From Armatimonadota bacterium (GTDB lineage Bacteria > Armatimonadota > HRBIN16): a stretch of DNA of 64,000 nucleotides. Of this stretch, positions 4,941-30,312 are shown piece after piece. Numbering within the stretch: position 1 is the first letter of the stretch; every line of letters starts with the position of its first letter. Below the pieces are notes generated by a model that saw only the letters and a list, made by a program, of their open reading frames with translations, did no database searches and was not told the origin of the DNA. The DNA is taken from contig OW818647.1 of NCBI GenBank assembly GCA_942492855.1, positions 2,486,264-2,550,263 on the forward strand, read 5' to 3'. Made by a program: the position numbers and the translations under genes.

Positions 4941-5179
4941 TTTTCTGAACCGCAGACCCGCACGGATGGGCTCGGATTGGGAGGGAAATGCCAATCGGGA
5001 GATTGGCGTTCCCAGGGGGCGTTCGTGGTCGTCCACCATAGTGATCGGTCGTATCCGTCCAATCCGTCGGATTCCGCCCCGTAAAACCCGAAGAGACCGG
5101 ACCGGTCATGGTCCCCCACACATCAAGGTCTGGTATAGTATTACCAATATACCCTTCATCGAGGAGATCGAGAGCAATC

Positions 5180-8100
5180 ATGGCTACTAAAGACACCAAG
5201 CTCATCAAACCGCAGAATATCGCGGTAAACGCAAGTAACCAGAAGACCACGGCCATCGTGTGGGACTTCGAGGACGGCACGATGCAGGGATGGCAGGTCG
5301 TGGTGGGCAAGCTGGCGCACCCGGTTTCGTGCTGCCCCAATGCGCGCAACACACCAAACGCCCCCTTCCCCAGGCAAGGAAAGTATCACCTCACCTCGCT
5401 GGATATCGATGATGTGGGCGGCTACAATGACGACCAAACCGCTATTGTGATATCACCTGTTTTCGATGCTCACACCGACATAATAAAGCTGCTGGTGGGC
5501 GGTGGAGTAAGCAAACCGACCTACGTCGCACTGTGTGACTTGAAGGGAAATGAGCTCTATGTGGCCAGGGGCCGCAACGAAGAGAAGCTGTATGAAGTCA
5601 TCTGGGATGTGAAGAAGCACAAGAACACCCCACTGTTCATCAAGATGGTGGATTTGGGTAAGGGCTCCTGGTCGCATATCCATGTAGACGACGTGCATAT
5701 TAACGGCGTGCTTCGGCCTGAGTTGAATGCCAAAGCTGCCAAGCTGGTGCAGGATCATTGGCAGGACGCCAATGTCGAAGCGAAAAAGGAGATGGTCAAT
5801 CGAAACGCGCTGCGCAAAGAGAACGCAGACCCCAAAAAGCTGCTGGTAACCGGCACTCAACGAGTCTACACGGGCAAGTATCTTAAGGCGATCAGTGTTC
5901 CGTTGGGAGGGATCGGCTCAGGCTGTATCCAGATCACGGGCCACGGCGAGCGGGTATACCAGACCTTCAATAACTTCAGCTACAACAAATTGCCGAACAG
6001 CTTCTTCGGTCTGGCGATGAGTGTGGGCGGCAAAACCCAGCTCCGCGCCTTGAAAGCGAAAGATGAGGGCGCGTTCAAGGGTTGGACTCCGGAGAGCTTC
6101 CGCGGGGAGTATCCCTGGTGCGAGTGGGATTTCCGCGAGAAGGGCCTGCCGGTTGAGGTCACCATGAACGCGTTCAGTCCGTTCATCCCGATGAACTTGA
6201 AGGACTCCAGCAACCCTGTGGTGATCTTCCGGTTCACGCTGCGAAACACCACCGACAAGGCCGTGAGCCTGCGGCTGCTGGGAGTGCATCGCAACGCAGT
6301 GGGTCAGCGTGACAGCGTCGCACCTGAGGGCAAGGAGCACCCCACTTACGGCCAGAACAGCAATGAAATCCGGCACCAGAACGCACTGACCACCCTGTAT
6401 ATGAGCGGGCCCGATGGCAACATGAGCCTGGCCGTGAACGGCAACGTGAAGGGCTGCGCCTCTTTACGCGACAACGCCGAGTTGGCCAAGCCGATGTCCG
6501 CTCAGAACCAGGCTGGCCCCACACCGAACGGCTCCACGATAGACGGTGCGCTGGAGGTCCCAATCAGCCTGCAGCCGGGTGAAGCGAAGACCGTCAGCTT
6601 TGCGCTGTCCTGGTTCTTCCCTGGTGCTGTGAATGGCAACTCTGTGCGCGCCAGCCGATGGACATTCGATGGCAACTTTTACGAGACCAAATGGCAAAAC
6701 AGCCAGCAGGTGACCAACTGGGCTTTGGGCAACATCGAACGACTGGTGAAAGAGACGAAACTCTTCCACGACACTCTCTACAGCAGCAATCTGCCGCGAT
6801 ACATTCTGGACCGCGCCAGTTCGCAGTTGGCCATTCTGGTCAGCAAGACCTGTTTCTGGAGCCGCAGCGGTTTCTTCGGCATGTGGGAAGGCTGCTGCGA
6901 GGCTGGCTCCGGCTGCTGCGAGGGCAACTGCCTGCATGTGTGGCATTATGCTCAAGGCCACGCTTGGCTCTTCCCCGAACTCGGCCGTATGATGCGCGTT
7001 CAGGAGATGGGTAACATCAAGCCCGATGGCATGCTGCCGCACCGCATCGCCGAGGGCCATGCCCCTGCCGCCGACGGTCTGTATGGCTGCATTTTGGGCA
7101 CCTACCGCGAACATCTGCTGACCCCCAACGAGAACTGGCTGAAGAAGAACTGGGCCAAGCTGAAACCCGCCATGGACTGGTCCATCAAGACCTGGGATCC
7201 CGATGAGGACGGCTTCATGAGCGGCCCGCAGTGGAACACCCTCGACAGTGCTCTCGACGGCTGCAGCAGTTGGCTGGGCTCGATGTATCTGGCGGCTCTG
7301 AAGGCGTGTGTGCAGATGGCCACCATCTGTGGCGACCACGGCGCCGCATCACGGTATGAGGCGATCTTCCGCAAGGGATACGTCAACCAGGGCGACAAGC
7401 TGTTCAACGGCGAATACTACCTCCAGATTCCTGGCCCTACCCCTCGCAACGACTACAATGACGGCAGCATCATCGACCAGGTTCTGGGCCAGTGGTGGGC
7501 CGACCTGCTGCATCTGGGCGATGTCTACCCGCGGGCGAGGGTCAAGAAGGCCGTGCGTGCCATCTACAAGTACAACTTCCATCCACTGATGGGCAACCGC
7601 CCGCAGGTTCCTCGCAAGTTCGTGGCAGACTTTGACGGCGGTACCCAGATGGTGGTCTGGCCGAAGAACAACCCGCCGGCAGTGACCATCCCCTACGCCA
7701 GCGAATGCATGTCGGGCTTTGAGTACAGCGCCGCATCTGCCATGGTGCAGAACGGCGATGTGGAGCAGGGCTATCGTGTGGTCAAGGCAATTGCCGACCG
7801 CTATGACGGCTATCTGCGTGACGACCTGACGGGCGGGAATACCGCCAGTTGGGGGTATAGTGGCAACCCATTCGGAGACGACGAGTGCGGTAAGTTCTAT
7901 GGCCGTGCGTTGAGCAGTTGGTCGATGGTCCCCGCCAGCCAGGGTCTGATCCTGGATGGGCCCAAAGGGATACTCGGCTTCAACCCTCAGTGGCAGCCAC
8001 AGGATCACCGCAGTTTCTTCCCTGTGCCGCAGGGATACGGCCTGTTCACTCAGACGGTTCGGGATGGTCAGCAAACCGACACTATCCGCATGATGGCGGG

Positions 8101-8293
8101 TGGTATCGAGTTGAAGCAGATCGTGCTTCAGTCTTATGCTGGCCGCGCAGTGAGGTCGGTCAAGCTCATCATCAACGGCGTGATGCTGAAGAGCAGCTAC
8201 CGGGTGCAGAACGGTCAGATTACCATCAAACTGGCCGAACCACTGAAGATCAGTGCCGGTCACGTTCTGACCGCGAACATCGCGCTGCGATAG
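5180..8293 (+). CDS. Glycoside hydrolase family 116 (GBA2-type beta-glucosidase/glucosylceramidase-like) with extra N-terminal ~230-aa domain, paralog A
   Basis: The PLGGIGSGCI motif marks the GH116 N-terminal domain. GCCEGNCLHVWHYAQG and the surrounding region match the GH116 catalytic (alpha/alpha)6 domain. The ATG at 5180 is preferred over the ORF-track start at 5108 by alignment with paralog B (MATKDTKLIKPQNI vs MNDNAQIISTQNI). Confidence 0.7.
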   Translation: MATKDTKLIKPQNIAVNASNQKTTAIVWDFEDGTMQGWQVVVGKLAHPVSCCPNARNTPNAPFPRQGKYHLTSLDIDDVGGYNDDQTAIVISPVFDAHTDIIKLLVGGGVSKPTYVALCDLKGNELYVARGRNEEKLYEVIWDVKKHKNTPLFIKMVDLGKGSWSHIHVDDVHINGVLRPELNAKAAKLVQDHWQDANVEAKKEMVNRNALRKENADPKKLLVTGTQRVYTGKYLKAISVPLGGIGSGCIQITGHGERVYQTFNNFSYNKLPNSFFGLAMSVGGKTQLRALKAKDEGAFKGWTPESFRGEYPWCEWDFREKGLPVEVTMNAFSPFIPMNLKDSSNPVVIFRFTLRNTTDKAVSLRLLGVHRNAVGQRDSVAPEGKEHPTYGQNSNEIRHQNALTTLYMSGPDGNMSLAVNGNVKGCASLRDNAELAKPMSAQNQAGPTPNGSTIDGALEVPISLQPGEAKTVSFALSWFFPGAVNGNSVRASRWTFDGNFYETKWQNSQQVTNWALGNIERLVKETKLFHDTLYSSNLPRYILDRASSQLAILVSKTCFWSRSGFFGMWEGCCEAGSGCCEGNCLHVWHYAQGHAWLFPELGRMMRVQEMGNIKPDGMLPHRIAEGHAPAADGLYGCILGTYREHLLTPNENWLKKNWAKLKPAMDWSIKTWDPDEDGFMSGPQWNTLDSALDGCSSWLGSMYLAALKACVQMATICGDHGAASRYEAIFRKGYVNQGDKLFNGEYYLQIPGPTPRNDYNDGSIIDQVLGQWWADLLHLGDVYPRARVKKAVRAIYKYNFHPLMGNRPQVPRKFVADFDGGTQMVVWPKNNPPAVTIPYASECMSGFEYSAASAMVQNGDVEQGYRVVKAIADRYDGYLRDDLTGGNTASWGYSGNPFGDDECGKFYGRALSSWSMVPASQGLILDGPKGILGFNPQWQPQDHRSFFPVPQGYGLFTQTVRDGQQTDTIRMMAGGIELKQIVLQSYAGRAVRSVKLIINGVMLKSSYRVQNGQITIKLAEPLKISAGHVLTANIALR

Positions 8294-8534: not shown

Positions 8535-11500
8535 ATGAATGACAACGCCCAGATCATATCAACGCAAAACATCACCGTAAGCAGCTCGAACCCTGAGACC
8601 ACGGCCATCGTGTGGGATTTCGAGGCCGGCACCATGCAGGGATGGCGCATTGCCGTCGGGAAGCAGGCTTACCCGGTCTCGTGCAACCCCAACGCGCGGA
8701 ATGTGCTCAACACCCCGTTCCCCAGACAAGGCAAATACCACCTCTCGACACTCGACACCGATGCGCTGGGCAACTGCGATGATAATCAGACCGCGATTGT
8801 GGTGTCTCCGGTGTTTGAGTCACATGGCGGGATCATCAAGCTGATGGTGGGCGGTGGAATGAACGGCGCGGTCTATCTGGCGCTTTGTGACATGCAGGGC
8901 CATGAGCTGATGGTGGTCAGGGGGCGCAACGAAGAGCGGCTGTATGATACCGAGTGGGACGTGAGTGCCCTTAAGAACCAGCCGTTATTCCTCAAAATGG
9001 TGGATATGGCGAAAGGCTCTTGGGCCCATATCCATGTGGACAATGTGCGCATCAATGGCCTTCTCAGACCAGAACTGGATGCCAAGGTAGCCAAGCTGGT
9101 GCGCCTGCAGTGGCAGGATGCCGAAACCAAACTCGCTGCCGAGTTAGCTTACCGCGACAAGCTCCGTCTAGAGAACGCTGACCCAAAGAAGCTGCTGGTG
9201 ACTGGCCATCAGCGCGTCTACACCGGGCGATACCTGGACGCCATCAGCGTGCCTCTTGGCGGGATCGGCTCAGGATGTATCCAGATCACGGGGCACGGCG
9301 AGCGGATCTACCAGACCTTCAACAACTTCAGCCAAAACAAAGTGCCGAACAGCTTTTTCGGCCTCGCCGTCAAGGTGGGCAGCCGGACCCAGCTCCGTGC
9401 TCTGCAAGGCAAGGATGTGGGTCCCTTCAAGGGCTGGTCACCGGAGAGCTTCAGAGGCGAATACCCCTGGTGCGAGTGGGGGTTCCGCGAGAAGGGCCTG
9501 CCTGTCGAAGTCACCATGAACGCCTTCAGCCCGTTCATCCCTGGCAACCTAAAGGACTCCAGCAACCCTGTGGTGATCTTCCGCTTCACACTGCGCAATA
9601 CCACCACCAAGCCGGTCAGCCTGCGCTTGCTGGGGTTGCACCGTAATCCGGTGGGTCAGCGCGAGGGGGTGTCACCGACAACCCTGCAGCACCCGGCATA
9701 TGGTCAGAATACCAATGAGATCACACATCAGAACGGCATCACCACACTGGTGATGAGCGGTCCCGATGGTAATATGAGCCTGGCGGTGAACGGCAACGCC
9801 ACGGGACGCGCCTCGGTGAAAGACCACACCGAGTTGGCCAAACCGATGTCTGCCCTCAACCATGCCGGGCCGACGCCCAACGGCTCCACGCTGGACGGTG
9901 CTCTCGAAGTGCCCATCAGCTTGCAGCCAGGCGAGGCGAAGACGATCAGCTTTACGCTGGGTTGGTATTTCCCGGGTGCCGTGAACGGCAGCCCCAACCG
10001 CGCCAGCAAGTGGACGTTTGATGGCAACTACTACGAGACGAAGTGGCGGAACAGCCAGCAGGTGGCCCACTGGGCGCTATCCAATCTGGAGAGGTTGACG
10101 CACGAGACCAAGCTATACCACGACACGCTCTACAGCAGTAACCTGCCACGCTACATCCTGGACCGAGCCAGTTCGCAGTTGGCGGTGCTGGTCAGCAAGA
10201 CTTGCTTCTGGAGCCGCAGCGGCTTCTTCGGTATGTGGGAGGGATGTCTGGAATCGGGCACAGGGTGCTGCGAAGGCAACTGCCTGCATGTGTGGCACTA
10301 CGCGCAGGGGCAGGCCTGGCTTTTTCCCGAACTCGGTCGCATGATGCGCGAGCAGGAGATCCACAACATCAAGCGCGACGGCAGTCTGCCCCACCGCATC
10401 GCCGAGGGGCATGTCCCCGCCGCCGATGGCCTGTTCGGCTGCGTGCTGGGAACCTACCGTGAGCACCTGTTGAGCCCCAACGCGACCTGGCTGAAGAAGA
10501 ACTGGCGCATATTGAAGCCCACCATGGAATGGGCCATCAAGACCTGGGACGCCGATGAAGATGGATACATGAGCGGTCCACAGTGGGACACGCTGGACAG
10601 CTCTCTGGGTGGCTGCAGCAGTTGGATAGGCTCATTGTATCTGGCGGCTCTGAAAGCTTGTGCTCAGATGGCGGACAAATGCGGCGATCCTGCGTCCACC
10701 CGGTATGACGCCATCGCGCGCAGGGGGTATACCAACCAGGGCGAGAGGCTGTTCAACGGCGAATACTACCAGCAGATTCCCGGCTCTGAGCCGCTGTATG
10801 ACTACAAAGACGGCTGCAGCATCGACCAGGTGCTGGGCCAGTGGTGGGCTGATCTGCTGCATCTGGGAGATGTCTACCCGCGTGCGCATGTCAAGAAAGC
10901 TGTGAAAGCGCTCTTTAAGCACAACTTCCAGCCTCACATGGGCGACCGTGAACAGGGTCGCGGCTATGTGGCCAGCTACGACGGTGGCTTGCAGATGATC
11001 ATCTGGCCGAAGAATAACCGGCCAACCCTGTCGACCCCAGGATCGCCCGAGGTGATGAGCGGCTTTGAATACAGTGCCGCCGCAGCGATGGTTCAGAATG
11101 GTGACCTGGAGCAAGGCTACCGTGTGGTGAAGACCGCCGCTGACCGGTATGACGGTATGCTGCGCACGGGCATGAACGCCAGCTCAAGTGTGTGTTGGGG
11201 ATACAGCGGCAACCCGTTTGGTGACGATGAGTGCGGCAAGTTTTACGGTCGTGCGTTGAGCAGTTGGTCGATGATCCCTGCCAGCCAGGGCCTGATCCTG
11301 GACGGCCCCAAGGGGATACTCGGCTTCAAGCCACAGTGGCAGCCGCAGGATCACCGCAGCTTCTTCCCTGTGCCTCAGGGCTACGGGTTGTTCTCACAGA
11401 CAGTTCGCGATGGCCAGCAGAATGACACCATCCGCATGACGACGGGTGGCATCGAGCTGAAGCAGATCATGCTTCAGGCATACGGTGGTCGCGGGGTGAA

Positions 11501-11639
11501 GACCGTGAAGCTCAGCCTCAACGGGGTGGTGCTCAAGAGCAGCTACCGCGTGCAGGATGGTTTGGTGAACATCACTCTGGCGGCGCCTCTGACGCTGCTT
11601 GCCGGCCAAGTGCTGACGGTGGCTGTCGCGCTGCGGTAG
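8535..11639 (+). CDS. Glycoside hydrolase family 116 with extra N-terminal domain, paralog B (tandem duplicate of 5180..8293)
   Basis: Collinear with the upstream gene at roughly 70-75% aa identity. Same PLGGIGSGCI and GCCEGNCLHVWHYAQG motifs. Confidence 0.7.
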   Translation: MNDNAQIISTQNITVSSSNPETTAIVWDFEAGTMQGWRIAVGKQAYPVSCNPNARNVLNTPFPRQGKYHLSTLDTDALGNCDDNQTAIVVSPVFESHGGIIKLMVGGGMNGAVYLALCDMQGHELMVVRGRNEERLYDTEWDVSALKNQPLFLKMVDMAKGSWAHIHVDNVRINGLLRPELDAKVAKLVRLQWQDAETKLAAELAYRDKLRLENADPKKLLVTGHQRVYTGRYLDAISVPLGGIGSGCIQITGHGERIYQTFNNFSQNKVPNSFFGLAVKVGSRTQLRALQGKDVGPFKGWSPESFRGEYPWCEWGFREKGLPVEVTMNAFSPFIPGNLKDSSNPVVIFRFTLRNTTTKPVSLRLLGLHRNPVGQREGVSPTTLQHPAYGQNTNEITHQNGITTLVMSGPDGNMSLAVNGNATGRASVKDHTELAKPMSALNHAGPTPNGSTLDGALEVPISLQPGEAKTISFTLGWYFPGAVNGSPNRASKWTFDGNYYETKWRNSQQVAHWALSNLERLTHETKLYHDTLYSSNLPRYILDRASSQLAVLVSKTCFWSRSGFFGMWEGCLESGTGCCEGNCLHVWHYAQGQAWLFPELGRMMREQEIHNIKRDGSLPHRIAEGHVPAADGLFGCVLGTYREHLLSPNATWLKKNWRILKPTMEWAIKTWDADEDGYMSGPQWDTLDSSLGGCSSWIGSLYLAALKACAQMADKCGDPASTRYDAIARRGYTNQGERLFNGEYYQQIPGSEPLYDYKDGCSIDQVLGQWWADLLHLGDVYPRAHVKKAVKALFKHNFQPHMGDREQGRGYVASYDGGLQMIIWPKNNRPTLSTPGSPEVMSGFEYSAAAAMVQNGDLEQGYRVVKTAADRYDGMLRTGMNASSSVCWGYSGNPFGDDECGKFYGRALSSWSMIPASQGLILDGPKGILGFKPQWQPQDHRSFFPVPQGYGLFSQTVRDGQQNDTIRMTTGGIELKQIMLQAYGGRGVKTVKLSLNGVVLKSSYRVQDGLVNITLAAPLTLLAGQVLTVAVALR

Positions 11640-16245: not shown

Positions 16246-18441
16246 CTACCCCTGTCTGCTGCGGTCGAACAGCACAAACAGTCCGTTCCGCGCCGGCAGG
16301 TTCAACGACACGGTGCTGTACCGACCAGCGTGTTTTGCTTTGGATGGCTCCATCGTACCGCTGACGGGGTCCCAAATCTGAACCCGGCCTGTGGCCCGGA
16401 AGCTGATATCACCAGAGATCGGCTTTAAGCCGTTGTTCTGAACGTAGTAGATGTCCCCGCTCTTGACCGAGCGATGGTGGCAGTAGACGTCCATCCCTGC
16501 CGTGATCGCCCGCACATCGGCTCCACCGATGGCCTCCATCGCCTTCGGCAAGGTCTCGTGAGAGCTGAGCCGTATCACCCTGCTGCTCCAGGGTGCCGAA
16601 CTGCTCCACAACTGGTCAGACAGTTTGCGAAACGCGGTGTCGTAACCGGCATCAGCACGCTGACTGGGGATATCCCCACACGCGATGACGGTGCCGCCGC
16701 GTTCCACGAATCGCATGATCTTGACCAGTGTCGCATACTCCAGGGTGGTGACATTTGGCAGGACCAGCACGGAGTATCGGCACTCACCCACGCTCATCGC
16801 GCCGAAGGAAATCCTGGATCTCGCCACACTGGCCTCGTCGATGTAGTCAAAGTCGCGCTGGCAGCCCAGAAGCGTGCGGGTGACGGCCTGCCAGGCGTCG
16901 TCCACCTTCGCTGCGGCGGGGTTCACGTCCATATGCCACACCGGACGGTTGGAGGGCACAAAATCCGCCCATACCGAGGCGATGGGGTAGAGAACCGCCA
17001 CGTCGGCCACAAACTTGCCGCGGGTCAGCAGATAGCTCAGCCGGCCCGTGTAGTCGTTCAGAAGCTGCTGCACTTCGGGCGTATGCTCCACCTGCATGCT
17101 CAGCGTGGTCAGCCAGTTGATGCCCAGCACCCACTGCCAGCCCACCACTGAGAGCATATCGGCAGGCGGTGTTTGCTTGGTCACAAAGCAGAACGACTCC
17201 GTGGTGGTACGCGGTTTGCCATACAGATGCGCCACCGAGCTGATCAGTTTTGGGGTGACCGGCCCGCCTTCGGTGCGTGAGCCTGACATGTTGCCGTAGG
17301 CGCAGCCCAGCAGGTCGACGCCCGGCCAGTCCAGCTCAGCCAGGGAGTCGACAATGCTGCCGTAGAAGTAGGCGTGGTAGATCAGCGATTCTTCCCACAC
17401 GCAGTGCCCGGTGGAGGCCACATTGTGCTGCTGACACCATTTGCGGATTTGGCCGAAGTAGTTGTCGGCGGTCAGCCGTGAAGTTGCACTATAGTAGTCG
17501 CAACGCTTCTTGACGGTGTCGGGCCCCACGTCGTTGAACAACGCAGGTAAAGCCTCACGGAGATCATATCCGCGCATTTTGCGGAAGGCAGCCGGTAGTC
17601 CGTCCCACCAGGAGAGAACCGGGAATTTCTGGTTCTCTTCCATCAAATACCCGCCCATCAGCGAAGGTTCATCGGTGAAGAACGCCTGGATGGTCTTGCC
17701 AAACTCATCCCCATGTCGAGCGAAATACTGCTCATGGGTGACCTCTATGAATTTGCGCACCGCGCGAGGGTCCATGATGTTGATGTATCGCTCGCCAAGT
17801 ATCTCAGAATGGGTGCCCTTGTACAGCCTGTCCTGCACGAAGGCCATGATCCGCCAGTTGCCGGGCTTGAGCTCATACTTCAGCACGCCGTTTGCCACTC
17901 GGCTGGTCAACTCCGCTGGCTTACCCACCAACGGCGTGTGAGCACCCGTCGTGGCATAGAGCACCACATAGTAAGGTTGGCCAGCGGGCAGCTTCCACTC
18001 ACCCGACCGAGGCGCCGATTCGCCGATGTCGATCGCGTCATAATACAGGCCCTGCGCCTCGAACTCGGGGTGGTCTTTCAGCACCAGTGCTCCCGCTTTG
18101 CCGCTGGGATAACCCCGTTCGTCATATATCCACATCGACAGGTTGTTCTCTTTACACGCCTTCAACGCCTCAGAAAACTGGCTCCAGCTCTCTTTGGTCT
18201 GCAGGTAACCCTCGCCCCAGTCGGGATACTGCACATTCATGCCACCCCAGCCGGCACCGCGCGCGCCGCTGGCCTGCTGCTGGATATGCGCGTAGTCGTA
18301 GGAGCACATCGGCAGTGCCCGATACTGCGTTTCGGGGTTCTTGAAACCTGCGGATATCTCAGCGATGCTCGATTGGTCAGGTGCAGCTTTCATGGGGTAA
18401 ACGGCCTCCTGGGTTTGGCGATTATGGATTGCATTTAGCAT
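16246..18441 (-). CDS. Hypothetical protein, probable glycoside-hydrolase-like enzyme (family not assignable)
   Basis: A 731-aa ORF; the true start may be the internal Met (MKAAPDQ, 45 nt downstream). It is rich in aromatic residues and acidic motifs typical of glycosidases (WIYDERGYPSG, GHCVWEESLIYH), but I see no unambiguous family signature. Confidence 0.3.
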   Translation of the reverse strand: MLNAIHNRQTQEAVYPMKAAPDQSSIAEISAGFKNPETQYRALPMCSYDYAHIQQQASGARGAGWGGMNVQYPDWGEGYLQTKESWSQFSEALKACKENNLSMWIYDERGYPSGKAGALVLKDHPEFEAQGLYYDAIDIGESAPRSGEWKLPAGQPYYVVLYATTGAHTPLVGKPAELTSRVANGVLKYELKPGNWRIMAFVQDRLYKGTHSEILGERYINIMDPRAVRKFIEVTHEQYFARHGDEFGKTIQAFFTDEPSLMGGYLMEENQKFPVLSWWDGLPAAFRKMRGYDLREALPALFNDVGPDTVKKRCDYYSATSRLTADNYFGQIRKWCQQHNVASTGHCVWEESLIYHAYFYGSIVDSLAELDWPGVDLLGCAYGNMSGSRTEGGPVTPKLISSVAHLYGKPRTTTESFCFVTKQTPPADMLSVVGWQWVLGINWLTTLSMQVEHTPEVQQLLNDYTGRLSYLLTRGKFVADVAVLYPIASVWADFVPSNRPVWHMDVNPAAAKVDDAWQAVTRTLLGCQRDFDYIDEASVARSRISFGAMSVGECRYSVLVLPNVTTLEYATLVKIMRFVERGGTVIACGDIPSQRADAGYDTAFRKLSDQLWSSSAPWSSRVIRLSSHETLPKAMEAIGGADVRAITAGMDVYCHHRSVKSGDIYYVQNNGLKPISGDISFRATGRVQIWDPVSGTMEPSKAKHAGRYSTVSLNLPARNGLFVLFDRSRQG

Positions 18442-18559
18442 AGTATATCCAAAGCCGCAACAGACGGTGGGTTTGCGGGATTGATATCAATCACATACTG
18501 TGTATAATACATATCATAAGTATCGCCTACCGATGGGCAAGAAAGGGGACGTGAGTACG

Positions 18560-18649
18560 ATGGGATCAACACCGCAAGCTATCTGTATGTCCGGTCATAT
18601 CACCACCACTACCACTACCTCTTCTTTCCGGAGGTCGCGGCGTATCTGA
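18560..18649 (+). CDS. Leader peptide MGSTPQAICMSGHITTTTTTSSFRRSRRI (or the shorter MSGHITTTTTTSSFRRSRRI from ATG 18587) with six consecutive Thr codons
   Basis: The RBS-like AAAGGGGA sits 9 nt before ATG 18560. The ORF contains ACC ACC ACT ACC ACT ACC and ends at TGA 18647-18649. It lies in the leader of the ThrRS-like gene, upstream of a terminator hairpin. Confidence 0.5.
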   Translation: MGSTPQAICMSGHITTTTTTSSFRRSRRI

Positions 18650-18676
18650 ACGTGCTCCAAATCAACAGTTTCGAAA

Positions 18677-18703
18677 GCCGCCCCCACCGGGGTGGCTTTT
18701 TTT
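18677..18703 (+). terminator. Intrinsic terminator (attenuator) hairpin GCCGCCC-ccaccg-GGGUGGC followed by UUUUUUU, in the leader of the ThrRS-like gene
   Basis: A 7-bp stem (one G-U pair) plus a 7-U tract on the + strand, ending 25 nt before the strong RBS AAGGAGG of the CDS at 18740. An upstream segment CCGGAGGTCGCGGC (18628-18641) can pair with the 5' arm as an alternative antiterminator. Confidence 0.6.
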
Positions 18704-18739
18704 GTCGCTCTGCTGTGGTGGTGGTCTAAGGAGGTCGTA

Positions 18740-20194
18740 ATGAAATCTGACAAGCACCATCCGAGTGAGTTCGACAGGTATGTATTAGCTGACGTCAATG
18801 GGCAGTGCTGGGAGGTCACACCAGACAACTATGCGAGTTGTGACCTGTTCCTGCAACCAGGCAACCATATAGCCATGCTCAAGCAGTTTGTCGGCAACGA
18901 ACTGGGTCACAAAGTTGACACTGGGTTGGTCCCTGCCCACGTCAACACCATGCTTCGTCATCAGTTGGTTGACTACTGCGAAGTTTCCGAGAAGGGTCAC
19001 TATGTATGGTATCCCAACGGTCTGCTGATGCACAGGCTGATCCAGGACTATGCGCTCCGCCTCTCACGGCAATGGGGAGCCTTCGAGGTGAAAAACCCGA
19101 TACTGATTCGTGGTGACAGCAACTCCGTCGGTGAGCTAATGGGTGAGTTTCACGAGAGGGACTACAAAGTAGACGGAGGCCGTGGCGTGTGCTATCTGCG
19201 CTACGCTTCCGATCCGCTGGCTTTCCCACTCATGCATAACATCCGGTTTACATACAAACAGACGCCCCTAAAGGTCTATGAGGAGGCAGGCTGTTTCCGT
19301 AATGAGCAAGAGGGTGAGGTGAGCGGTCTGAAGCGTGTCAGGGGCTTCATGATGAGTGATATGCACGCAGCCTGTGCGACTACAGAACAGGCCAACTTGG
19401 AATTCGAAAAGCTGTGCATGCTGTTTGCTCAGCTCATGGATGATGTCATTGCACCTGGTCGATGGGTCATGGGTTGGGAGGGCACCACGGAATTCTTCGA
19501 TGATCACAAAGAGTGGTTGCTGGGTCTTGTTACACAGATGGGTGTGCCCTCGTTTTTCAAGCTGATGCCACAAATGAGCCACTACTACGCCATCAAGAAC
19601 GAATATCAATGCATTACGGCTGATGGCTCAAATGTGCAGGTGAGCACTGTTCAGTGGGACGTCAAAGATGGAGCACGCTTTGATATTGGATACATTGCCG
19701 ATGATGGCATGAAGCACGCCTGCCCGGTGATTCTGCACGCATCCAGTTTCGGCAGCATCGAACGGGCACTATGCGCCATTCTGGAGACGATTACAGTAGA
19801 TGCATCCCAGGGGGCACCGCCGTCGTTCCCTCTCTGGCTTGCGCCTACTCAGGTGAGGGTGATTCCAGTATCATCGGATTATCTGGAATATGCACAAGCC
19901 GTGGCATCGAGCATGAATGCTGCCGAGATCCGCTGCGATATTGATGATCGGAACGAAACCGTAAGCAAGCGAGTTCGAACTGCAGAAGGTGACTGGGTGC
20001 CGTATATAGCTGTGGTGGGTGCCAGAGAGGCTAGTTCCTCTGTGTTGCATATCCGCGACCGTGTGAAAGGGGAGGCTAGTGACACTGAGATTGGTGAGTT
20101 CATCAACACCCTTGCTGCTGATTTACGGGGTATGCCGTTTCGGCCGCTGGCGTTGCCGGTATTAGTCAGCCAAAGGCCGACTTTCCGAGGCTAG
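18740..20194 (+). CDS. Threonyl-tRNA synthetase-like class II aaRS paralog lacking N-terminal TGS and editing domains
   Basis: RBS AAGGAGG precedes ATG 18740. The motif-2 region LKVYEEAGCFRNEQEGEVSGLKRVRGFMMSDMHAAC aligns with ThrRS [36 protein letters not shown]. The C-terminus (PLWLAPTQVRVIPVS...DIDDRNETVSKRVRTAEGDWVPYIAVVGAREA) is a ThrRS-type anticodon-binding domain. The zinc-ligand Cys of the CPGH motif appears to be replaced (AFPLMH), while the two His ligands are conserved. Confidence 0.7.
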   Translation: MKSDKHHPSEFDRYVLADVNGQCWEVTPDNYASCDLFLQPGNHIAMLKQFVGNELGHKVDTGLVPAHVNTMLRHQLVDYCEVSEKGHYVWYPNGLLMHRLIQDYALRLSRQWGAFEVKNPILIRGDSNSVGELMGEFHERDYKVDGGRGVCYLRYASDPLAFPLMHNIRFTYKQTPLKVYEEAGCFRNEQEGEVSGLKRVRGFMMSDMHAACATTEQANLEFEKLCMLFAQLMDDVIAPGRWVMGWEGTTEFFDDHKEWLLGLVTQMGVPSFFKLMPQMSHYYAIKNEYQCITADGSNVQVSTVQWDVKDGARFDIGYIADDGMKHACPVILHASSFGSIERALCAILETITVDASQGAPPSFPLWLAPTQVRVIPVSSDYLEYAQAVASSMNAAEIRCDIDDRNETVSKRVRTAEGDWVPYIAVVGAREASSSVLHIRDRVKGEASDTEIGEFINTLAADLRGMPFRPLALPVLVSQRPTFRG

Positions 20195-28959: not shown

Positions 28960-30312
28960 TTACAAATCCTCGCCATTGGACGCGATGCGGTCGCGATACC
29001 ACCAGTAGCTGTCCTTCGGGATGCGCTGCTTGGTGTCGTAGTCCACATGGATGATGCCGAAACGCTGCTTATACCCCTCGGCCCATTCGAAGTTGTCCAG
29101 CAGTGACCACAAGAAATACCCGGCCACATCCACGCCGTCATCCGCGGCCCGCTTGAGCTCCCGCAGGTAGCGGTGCAGGAAGTCGATGCGCTGACTGTCA
29201 TGAACCTGCCCGTCCATATGCACCACATCGAAATTACCCATGCCGTTCTCCGTCACCACCACCGGCTTGCCGTATCGCTCATTTAGCCACTTGGAGGTGT
29301 AGTAAAGAACCTCCGGGGTGATGGGCCACTGCATAGAGGTGATCGGGTTGCCCATCGGCTGCGGCACCTCAACAGGCCGACCATTTTCGCCCGCCTTGAT
29401 GCACACACCGTTGTAGCAGTTATAGGCGCATAGGTCGAGTGGCTGAGCGATCAGCTCCATATCGCCCTGCTTGATCTGAGGTGCGTTGGCTCCCAGCGCG
29501 TTGATGATGGCCTCGGGATAGCCCTTGCCAAACACGGGGTCTGTCCAGAACATCGTAGGCGCCATGCTTTCGCCCTGGGGGTTCAGGAACCAGTGTTTGG
29601 CGGCCTCAATATCTTGCGGGCTGCTGGTATGCGGGTAGCTGGCGGTGCCCACGGGCACTATGCCCACCTTGCCAGGACGCAGCGCATGGCCTCGGATGGC
29701 CTGCACCGCCTTGCCGTGCGCCAGCAGCGCGTTATGTGCGGCGGTGGCCACCTGACCGGTCTGAAGCTTGTCCCCAGGGGCGTGAACACCCGCCTGCATC
29801 CCCGCCAGAATGAAGCACTGGGGCTCATTGAGTGTCAGCCAGTTGAATACGCGGTCGGACAGGCGAAAGGCCACCACGGCGGCGTAATATGAGAACCAGT
29901 CCACGATCTCGCGATTCAGCCATCCGCCGCGGCGGTAGAGCTCTAGCGGGAGGTCCCAGTGGAACAACGTCACCCAGGGCGCGATACCGGCATCTTCTAG
30001 CTCATCCACGAGACGGTCGTAGAAATCCAGTGCTGCTTCATTCGGCTGGCCTGTGCCATCCGGGAACACCCAGGGCCAAGAGATGCTGAAGCGGTAGGCG
30101 TTGATGCCCAGTTGCTTCATCAGCACCACGTCCTGCTTCATGTTGGCGATGTGCTCTGGCCCGCTGCTGCCGTCGTGTCCCAGATAGGTGGCACTGGGCT
30201 TCTGGCAGAACATATCCCAGACGCACGGCTTGCGGCCCTCGGCCAGGCGTGTTCCTTCTATCTGGTATGAGGCGGTGGCGGCTCCCCAGGCAAAATCGTC
30301 TCGAAATGACAT
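28960..30312 (-). CDS. Glycoside hydrolase family 1 beta-glucosidase
   Basis: FAWGAATASYQIEG is the GH1 N-terminal signature. LNEP carries the acid/base Glu and VVTENGMG the nucleophile Glu in the TENG motif. 450 aa. Confidence 0.85.
   Translation of the reverse strand: MSFRDDFAWGAATASYQIEGTRLAEGRKPCVWDMFCQKPSATYLGHDGSSGPEHIANMKQDVVLMKQLGINAYRFSISWPWVFPDGTGQPNEAALDFYDRLVDELEDAGIAPWVTLFHWDLPLELYRRGGWLNREIVDWFSYYAAVVAFRLSDRVFNWLTLNEPQCFILAGMQAGVHAPGDKLQTGQVATAAHNALLAHGKAVQAIRGHALRPGKVGIVPVGTASYPHTSSPQDIEAAKHWFLNPQGESMAPTMFWTDPVFGKGYPEAIINALGANAPQIKQGDMELIAQPLDLCAYNCYNGVCIKAGENGRPVEVPQPMGNPITSMQWPITPEVLYYTSKWLNERYGKPVVVTENGMGNFDVVHMDGQVHDSQRIDFLHRYLRELKRAADDGVDVAGYFLWSLLDNFEWAEGYKQRFGIIHVDYDTKQRIPKDSYWWYRDRIASNGEDL

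Follow-up and report, generated by a model that had tools for sequence, protein, structure and literature searches.

The stretch of DNA analysed here, 64,000 nucleotides (nt) from an Armatimonadota bacterium that we refer to as the window, raises the question of what a very short open reading frame (ORF) with six consecutive Thr codons, followed by an intrinsic terminator, is doing in front of thrS, a gene encoding an archaeal-type threonyl-tRNA synthetase (ThrRS). Our answer is that these elements very probably form a ribosome-mediated leader-peptide transcription attenuator, which would sense charged tRNA-Thr and control thrS. An initial annotation, made from the sequence alone, had proposed such an attenuator in preference to a T-box riboswitch. 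When we re-read the sequence, the leader ORF, the run of six Thr codons, the terminator, an upstream candidate antiterminator segment (region 2) and the Shine-Dalgarno (SD) sequence of thrS were all found where it had placed them. The choice of a ribosome-mediated Thr attenuator over a T-box is also strongly supported, in view of recurrent Thr-run leaders with a constant spacing and of the lack of any T-box match in Rfam, as is the expectation that the Thr codons and the hairpin would be conserved in orthologous leaders, which is borne out at 16 further loci.

The elements upstream of thrS follow one another on the forward (+) strand. A sigma-70-like promoter for the leader-thrS transcript (18481..18508, + strand) consists of a -35 TTGATA (18481-18486) and a -10 TATAAT (18503-18508) separated by a 16-nt spacer, with 11/12 consensus matches, and there are 3 promoter-like sites where 0.7 would be expected in shuffles. 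Judging from the position of these boxes, transcription would start near 18515. The leader ORF itself (18560..18649, + strand) encodes a peptide of 29 codons, MGSTPQAICMSGHITTTTTTSSFRRSRRI, and runs from an ATG at 18560 to a TGA at 18647-18649. It is preceded by an SD-like sequence, AAAGGGGA (18542..18549, + strand), identified by direct reading, and homologous leaders display AAAGGAGRACG 7-8 nt 5' of their ATG. The control codons, ACC ACC ACT ACC ACT ACC (18602..18619, + strand), are codons 15-20 of the leader. They form the only Thr run of at least five in the six frames of the window, where about 0.005 runs of at least six would be expected from the frequency of AC-N triplets. The leader thus has its own promoter, ribosome-binding site (RBS) and short ORF on the same strand as thrS, and its codon cluster is for the very amino acid that the product of the regulated gene handles. 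The gene 5' of it (GH106-like, 16246-18393) is encoded on the opposite strand and is divergent.

The closest genome match is the chromosome of an Armatimonadota metagenome-assembled genome (L001; loci other than the window are given such L numbers), whose ThrRS shows 94% protein identity. There, the leader promoter is unchanged, and the leader ORF is kept with three amino-acid changes and an intact Thr run. Promoters of the TTGACA type occupy the equivalent relative position in L002, L003, L004, L090 and L091. An alternative in-frame ATG, 27 nt 5' of the ATG at 18560 (18533-18535), was considered as leader start and set aside as unlikely: it has no SD and is an ACG in L001. Since this codon is not kept even in a relative that is 94% identical, 18560 is the conserved start. 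As a separate observation, the region from -35 to +1 of the promoter (18482-18516) contains an imperfect 17-nt inverted repeat, 71% complementary with outer TGATAT/ATATCA, either a candidate operator for some transcription factor or a mere coincidence of AT-rich sequence.

The intrinsic terminator (18674..18703, + strand) separates the leader ORF from thrS and has an 11-bp stem, a CACC loop and a U7 tract. Its 5' arm, AAAGCCGCCCC (18674-18684), is joined by the loop (18685-18688) to the 3' arm, GGGGUGGCUUU (18689-18699), and the U7 tract covers 18697-18703. With an energy of -19.5 kcal/mol (z = -4.2), the hairpin folds better than every one of 200 shuffles. It starts 24 nt after the leader stop, and the terminator ends 36 nt before the ATG of thrS. 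In a 10-leader alignment, 97.5% of the cells in the terminator helix pair, and compensatory changes are found at two pairs. A simple terminator scanner did not flag this hairpin, which folding reveals plainly, because its AAA:UUU pairs consume part of the U tract. Since the gene 5' of the leader is divergent, the terminator ends no other transcript.

We next consider how often this arrangement recurs, using homolog DNA obtained by exact-protein look-ups and one metagenome scan. Besides the window, 16 loci (including the near-identical L001) have a Thr-rich leader ORF and a terminator 5' of thrS, with ThrRS identities of 58-94%, and these leader-bearing loci span at least two phyla. Their leader ORFs are 22-40 codons long and contain 5-16 Thr, mostly in runs of 3-8, with L004, L088 and L091 having only a Thr pair and scattered Thr. 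The hairpins that follow the leader ORFs range from -18 to -27 kcal/mol and run into a T-rich tail. In every one of the 17 loci, the distance from leader stop to terminator 5' arm is 24-31 nt, so the design is conserved at orthologous genes. Examples are the leaders of L002 (MSALILITTSAATTTTTTTVLYFARKLRRT), L090 (MSRVQITINNTVTCTTTTTTLVFTHPPELRSE), L092 (..TQTGTTTTTTTLLRAPEVRRS), L093 (MHIRLSTRTTTTTTTQGRTTTVRPTDRYGILRLNTP), L026 (MSQLITVTTTTCHWARRVCSSELNKM) and L012 (MNFSLKTRTTTTTTTTEQGRTTTTTATWTDRYGIFRLNIF), the last being of Gemmatimonadota type and associated with a long-form enzyme. Among the leaders, several families can be told apart whose sequences do not align with one another, including that of the window (...PPE.R../..RRSRRI), ...DRYGI[FL]RLN.. 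and ..C[HQ]WAR... Since these families share the same codon content and spacing, the design has been kept or re-invented regardless of peptide sequence. One family includes L012 and L093 and is found with long and short enzymes, and the element is therefore independent of the loss of the editing domain, which distinguishes short from long forms.

The enrichment of runs in these upstream regions is specific to Thr. In a set of 61 non-redundant loci, each with 300 nt or more of sequence 5' of the gene, small upstream ORFs contain runs of at least four Thr at 10 loci, while no other amino acid exceeds two loci; the Val runs seen in antisense mirror those of Thr. A terminator-like hairpin lies within 170 nt of the start at 15 of the 61 loci, and at about 12 of these 15 it is preceded by a Thr-run ORF ending 22-30 nt earlier.

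Two of these related loci show additional features upstream of thrS. In L003 (2419-2510), a second small Thr-rich ORF, MYLVSQPTTNFTNTKTAIFSLRKGRWID..., with its own SD, AAAAAGGAGAATTGATATG, lies between the terminator and thrS and enters the thrS start out of frame; this arrangement hints at a possible second stage of sensing, at the level of translation, in the lineage of L003. In L088 (780-880), there are two tandem terminator hairpins 5' of thrS, and the leader, VNHEFLTTYIQNEYVLSHSRRLASR, has just two adjacent Thr codons.

The segment that would turn the terminator into a switch is region 2, CCGGAGGUCGCGGC (18628..18641, + strand), a putative antiterminator strand similar to the 3' arm of the terminator and located 6-19 nt 5' of the leader stop codon. 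In the mechanism suggested by these elements, a transcript would begin at the 18481-18508 promoter and a ribosome would begin to translate the leader ORF at 18560. With Thr-tRNA(Thr) in ample supply, the ribosome would reach the stop at 18647 and place its footprint over region 2 (18628-18641); with region 2 masked, the terminator hairpin (18674-18699) would form, and RNA polymerase would be released at the U7 tract without having entered thrS. If little charged tRNA-Thr is available, the ribosome would stall within 18602-18619, with its leading edge just short of region 2. The free region 2 (GGAGG..GCGGC) would then pair with the 5' arm (GCCGC..CCCC) as soon as the latter is made, no terminator would form, and polymerase would read through into thrS, yielding more ThrRS. 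We infer from the arrangement that region 2 acts as antiterminator, that transcription and translation are coupled in this organism and that the response goes in this direction.

Several properties of region 2 fit this role. Its partners are the 5' arm and loop of the terminator, with GCGGC:GCCGC plus GG.GG:CC/CC as the pairs, and the local fold of 18630-18688 reaches -16.6 kcal/mol. In an alignment of ten window-type leaders (A3), the GCGG core is present in nine, and the GUGG found in the tenth (L091) still allows pairing. This core stands 6-8 nt before the leader stop, except in L086, where it is beyond the stop codon. When the five core pairs are in register, 90% of the A3 cells pair, as against 22-70% with the partner slid. 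The core is adjoined by a CCGGAG block whose reading frame is C|CGG|AGG for the window and for L002, and CCG|GAG in L003, L004, L085, L090 and L092, so that the encoded residues differ with the leader frame (FRR/ARK vs PPE/VPE), and there is a 1-nt indel between the block and GCGG. Being read in two frames and followed by this indel, the block argues for region 2 having been conserved as RNA rather than as peptide.

Positions are also compatible with masking by a ribosome, modelled with a footprint of -15 to +12 around the A site. Whichever of the six Thr codons occupies the A site, the footprint extends no further than 18614-18629 and region 2 remains free, whereas a stop codon in the A site brings almost all of region 2 (18632-18641) under the footprint, the GCGGC core included. 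In a local model that folds only what lies between the 3' edge of the ribosome and the last base preceding the terminator 3' arm, the 5' arm of the window has a pairing probability of P = 0.76 (-16.6 kcal/mol) for a stalled ribosome, vs P = 0.13 (0.0 kcal/mol) for one at the stop. With the stall placed at the middle of the Thr run, this contrast is seen in 11 of the 12 leaders tested, L027 being the one without it.

Other results weigh against the attenuator as proposed. There is no compensatory change in the antiterminator core of the A3 alignment, because the core is invariant. When the upstream segment is shuffled with dinucleotides preserved, 8% of the shuffles match the arm pairing observed in the window, 3-42% equal the observed pairing in 10 of the 11 other leaders tested, and 97% attain the low pairing observed in the remaining one, L027. 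When the whole 5' leader of the window is folded at equilibrium, the stalled and stop states are alike, with the arm paired at P = 0.41-0.44 vs 0.48; in transcripts stopped before the 3' arm, long-range pairing with the 5' untranslated region blurs the difference between the two states, and in the complete transcript the terminator is always the fold. A putative 1:2 hairpin, predicted by folding between ACCUCU (18617-18622) and GGAGGU (18630-18635; 18617..18635 overall, + strand), is weak and at chance level (-5.7 kcal/mol, z = -1.2). The element is absent from about 80% of the family loci, and at L084 thrS and the gene before it overlap.

Since the folds of the full leader do not discriminate between the two states and the terminator always wins in the complete transcript, the modelled switch has to be kinetic, like that of the classical systems. 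An antiterminator role for region 2 is plausible; the segment is correctly placed and its role unproven. This qualifies what the initial annotation had claimed. The segment it named as antiterminator does hold an invariant GCGG that pairs with the 5' arm, but it shows no compensatory change and 8% of shuffles do as well. The mutually exclusive pairings that it expected from folding appear as a contrast in the local model, but the equilibrium folds of the full leader are indifferent and the 1:2 pairing is weak. The covariation that it suggested looking for across homologous leaders is seen in the terminator helix, at the two compensatory pairs, and not in the antiterminator.

As for region 2 itself, the exact 8-nt direct repeat GGAGGTCG occurs within it (18630-18637) and again in the SD region of thrS (18730-18737), and the sequences that follow the two copies are also alike (GGAGGTCGCGGCGTATCTGA vs GGAGGTCGTAATGA). 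This repeat may be the trace of a duplication or may be due to chance.

Could the Thr run act on translation of thrS as well as on termination? Next to the SD of thrS, AAGGAGGU (18728..18735, + strand, read from the sequence), there is a run of GGU, GUGGUGGUGGU (18715..18725, + strand), which ends 2 nt (C18726, U18727) 5' of the SD and is an 11-bp complement, with one G-U, of the Thr codons at 18602-18612. This run may not belong to the attenuator. If it does, the Thr run could pair with the GGU run and the SD/AUG (18715-18743) on read-through transcripts and repress translation of thrS, and a ribosome stalled on the Thr codons would relieve this repression, which would amount to an ermC-like translational attenuation on top of the control of termination. 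Besides the 11-bp complement between 18602-18612 and 18715-18725, such dual control is favoured by the minimum free energy fold of 18545-18745 (201 nt), which stretches the helix over part of the SD and AUG, and by the energy of the duplex between the two runs (-21 kcal/mol), which only 2% of shuffles reach. Weaker complements of the Thr run are found beside the RBS of thrS in L085, L003 and L027. The duplex is also kept in L001, where a C-to-U change turns a G-C into a G-U pair, but this is uninformative because L001 is 94% identical and hence not independent. The modelled accessibility of the RBS, with 25 nt of coding sequence included, is unchanged, at 0.63, 0.59 and 0.59 in the free, stalled and stop states, respectively. 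The complement is missing in 8 of the 12 independent leaders tested, and a Fisher combination, by hand, of the 12 shuffle fractions gives ~0.08. Since RBS accessibility is unaltered in the model and the complement is not general, we rejected sequestration of the SD by the Thr run as a candidate, and we regard dual control of this kind as unlikely.

A joint reading that goes further is similarly improbable. According to it, the ThrRS without editing domain would be a second, inducible synthetase, switched on only when charging of tRNA-Thr collapses, for instance because of natural ThrRS inhibitors or of threonine or zinc limitation, and the stalled ribosome would both block termination and license translation via the helix between the Thr run and the GGU run. 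If this were true, the locus would be a two-level backup or resistance switch, which may raise mistranslation of Thr codons with Ser under stress. The initial annotation had already taken thrS for a paralog that would be induced, for example, by inhibition of the housekeeping ThrRS, a proposal that nothing found in the window supports. Only if the reading as a paralog or the dual-control reading is true would the locus bear on an open mechanistic question.

A simpler possibility is that the terminator is a partial one, constitutive or regulated otherwise, and that the Thr run is either a by-product of composition or part of a real micro-protein. The lack of statistical support for the antiterminator is in its favour. 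On the other hand, there is no other transcript for this terminator to end, the upstream gene being divergent, the Thr run is unique in the window, and at orthologous genes Thr runs are repeatedly and specifically tied to 5' terminators, with no conservation elsewhere in the peptide. We therefore hold this explanation to be very unlikely. Autoregulation by the enzyme is scarcely credible either. ThrRS would bind its own leader, for example at the anticodon-like GGU repeats by the SD, as it does in E. coli, and the small ORF would be incidental. GGU is indeed the anticodon sequence of tRNA-Thr and lies 3 nt from the SD, and the E. coli thrS operator mimics the anticodon arm of tRNA-Thr (PMC2965389). 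However, no fold of 18704-18740 has a local stem-loop presenting GGU, the GGU run is missing in most orthologous leaders, where the conserved part is the Thr-codon ORF with its terminator, and neither the Thr-specific runs nor the fixed spacing between stop and terminator would be explained.

A T-box riboswitch, or some other known structured RNA responding to uncharged tRNA-Thr, is effectively refuted: Bacillus thrS and thrZ are under T-box control, but here the leader 5' of the terminator is ~160 nt long and mostly occupied by the ORF, and the T-box covariance model (RF00230) finds no match in 18300-18900 up to E = 10. More generally, no Rfam family reaches threshold across the whole window, nor 5' of thrS in 20 related loci. 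The best scores below threshold are those of Phe_leader (21.5), whose match is confined to the terminator, and Thr_leader (RF00506, 18.2 bits), as against a gathering score of 55 for both, so the element does not belong to the Thr_leader family. Since Rfam has no family for these elements, they are currently unannotated.

The initial annotation had presented control of a synthetase gene by a leader-peptide attenuator as a departure from known attenuators of amino-acid biosynthesis. This is overstated, since such control is not unusual in kind: it is known for pheST, trpS, leuS, paralogs of hisS and, weakly, thrS (PMC1262725, PMC2965389 and PMC8079986). Leader-peptide attenuation of a synthetase gene is established for E. 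coli pheST (a precedent cited in PMC1262725), and leader-peptide attenuators have been predicted for Streptomyces trpS and leuS (PMC1262725) and for Bacillus hisS paralogs (PMC2965389). For S. lividans alaS, leuS, trpS and thrS, leader-peptide attenuation has been proposed from RNA-seq (PMC8079986); its 'thrL' 5' of thrS has two Thr codons only, is leaderless and has no clear terminator (PMC8079986).

How does the window compare with these and other systems? It resembles E. coli pheST (pheM) in having a short ORF rich in cognate codons and an intrinsic terminator that would control a synthetase through the charged cognate tRNA, but pheST responds to Phe, belongs to another phylum and has no sequence relationship with it. 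With the leader of the enterobacterial thr operon (thrL, RF00506) it shares a run of Thr codons and, if the proposed mechanism is right, alternative terminator and antiterminator pairings and a Thr-tRNA signal, whereas thrL also has Ile codons and controls genes of threonine biosynthesis rather than a synthetase. The synthetase attenuators of Streptomyces and Bacillus are an equivalent element before synthetase genes outside Proteobacteria. Compared with S. lividans thrL, the leader of the window contains six Thr codons, is preceded by an SD and followed by a canonical terminator, and stands in front of an archaeal-type thrS; it also has counterparts in several lineages. The T-box leaders of thrS and thrZ in Firmicutes regulate the same function, low charging of tRNA-Thr leading to read-through of a leader terminator, but they do so by a structured RNA that binds uncharged tRNA without translation, and the window has no T-box. 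The translational operator of E. coli thrS is likewise a cis element in the 5' leader of thrS that provides feedback control of ThrRS. There, however, the ThrRS protein binds tRNA-like hairpins at the RBS, and none is predicted at 18704-18740. As regards the enzyme, crenarchaeal ThrRS-cat, the partner of a free-standing ThrRS-ed, has the same archaeal-type catalytic and anticodon-binding domains and no editing domain, whereas the host of the window is bacterial.

We found no description in the literature of Thr leaders before archaeal-type thrS, or in Armatimonadota or Gemmatimonadota, but an earlier description in the survey of synthetase attenuators by Lopatovskaya et al. 2010 (Mol Biol 44:128) is possible. 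If our reading is correct, classical leader-peptide attenuation, known in Proteobacteria and predicted in Actinobacteria and Bacilli, would extend to Armatimonadota and at least Gemmatimonadota, as well as to the archaeal-type ThrRS family in bacteria. With about one in five family loci having a Thr leader, and with unrelated leader families sharing the same spacing, these loci offer a data set on how attenuators are gained, retained and re-invented. They also reveal an annotation gap, since the leader ORFs, and sometimes the synthetase too, are labelled 'hypothetical' or missed.

The gene downstream of the attenuator, thrS (18740..20194, + strand), encodes a 484-residue archaeal-type ThrRS. 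The protein consists of a class II core (PF00587) and an HGTP anticodon-binding domain (PF03129), and it matches profile positions 176-612 of NF003068 (421.9 bits, E = 4e-126). Lacking the N-terminal editing domain, it scores below the 484 required of an equivalog; no such domain (PF08915) is found in the product, and the open frame 5' of the ATG is just 16 codons long. The protein thus has the catalytic and anticodon-binding parts of NF003068 that characterise an archaeal-type ThrRS without being a full-length equivalog. Among more than 1000 homologs, about half have the archaeal editing domain PF08915 (about 630 residues in length), and the other half are short like the window protein. The homologs that bear a name are called threonyl-tRNA synthetase, and the relatives that keep the editing domain threonine--tRNA ligase. 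Bacterial and eukaryotic ThrRS in the PDB are matched at 1e-35 to 1e-25, and H209 and H333 take the positions of the two histidines that bind zinc in bacterial ThrRS. At residues 154-163 of the window protein, and likewise in all 122 retrieved members, long and short, RYASDP stands in place of the bacterial zinc-ligand cysteine motif MNCPGH, which may reflect an offset of the pairwise alignment or the use of the Asp by this family. The 483-residue short-form ThrRS of L004 (P0005, GCA_039683595.1) bears the NCBI label 'hypothetical protein', likely because without an editing domain it is below the equivalog cutoff.

In the window, thrS is monocistronic, and the next gene, argC, is convergent. 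Neighbouring genes encode a GH106-like protein, MarR, two ABC exporters, ArgC, a queuosine-precursor transporter, two GH116, a GH1 and TatC, among others. No genes of a biosynthetic cluster were recognised among these neighbours, and for this reason we discarded the idea that thrS might be a self-resistance gene within such a cluster. At one related locus, on a metagenome contig (L029, 3189-3389), a HEARO RNA (RF02033, 105 bits) lies directly 3' of the thrS homolog. The region of the window around thrS is rich in glycoside hydrolases (GH), with the GH106-like gene at 16246-18393 and a GH1 gene at 28960-30312, and two paralogous genes of the GH116 family stand in tandem at 5108-8293 and 8535-11639.

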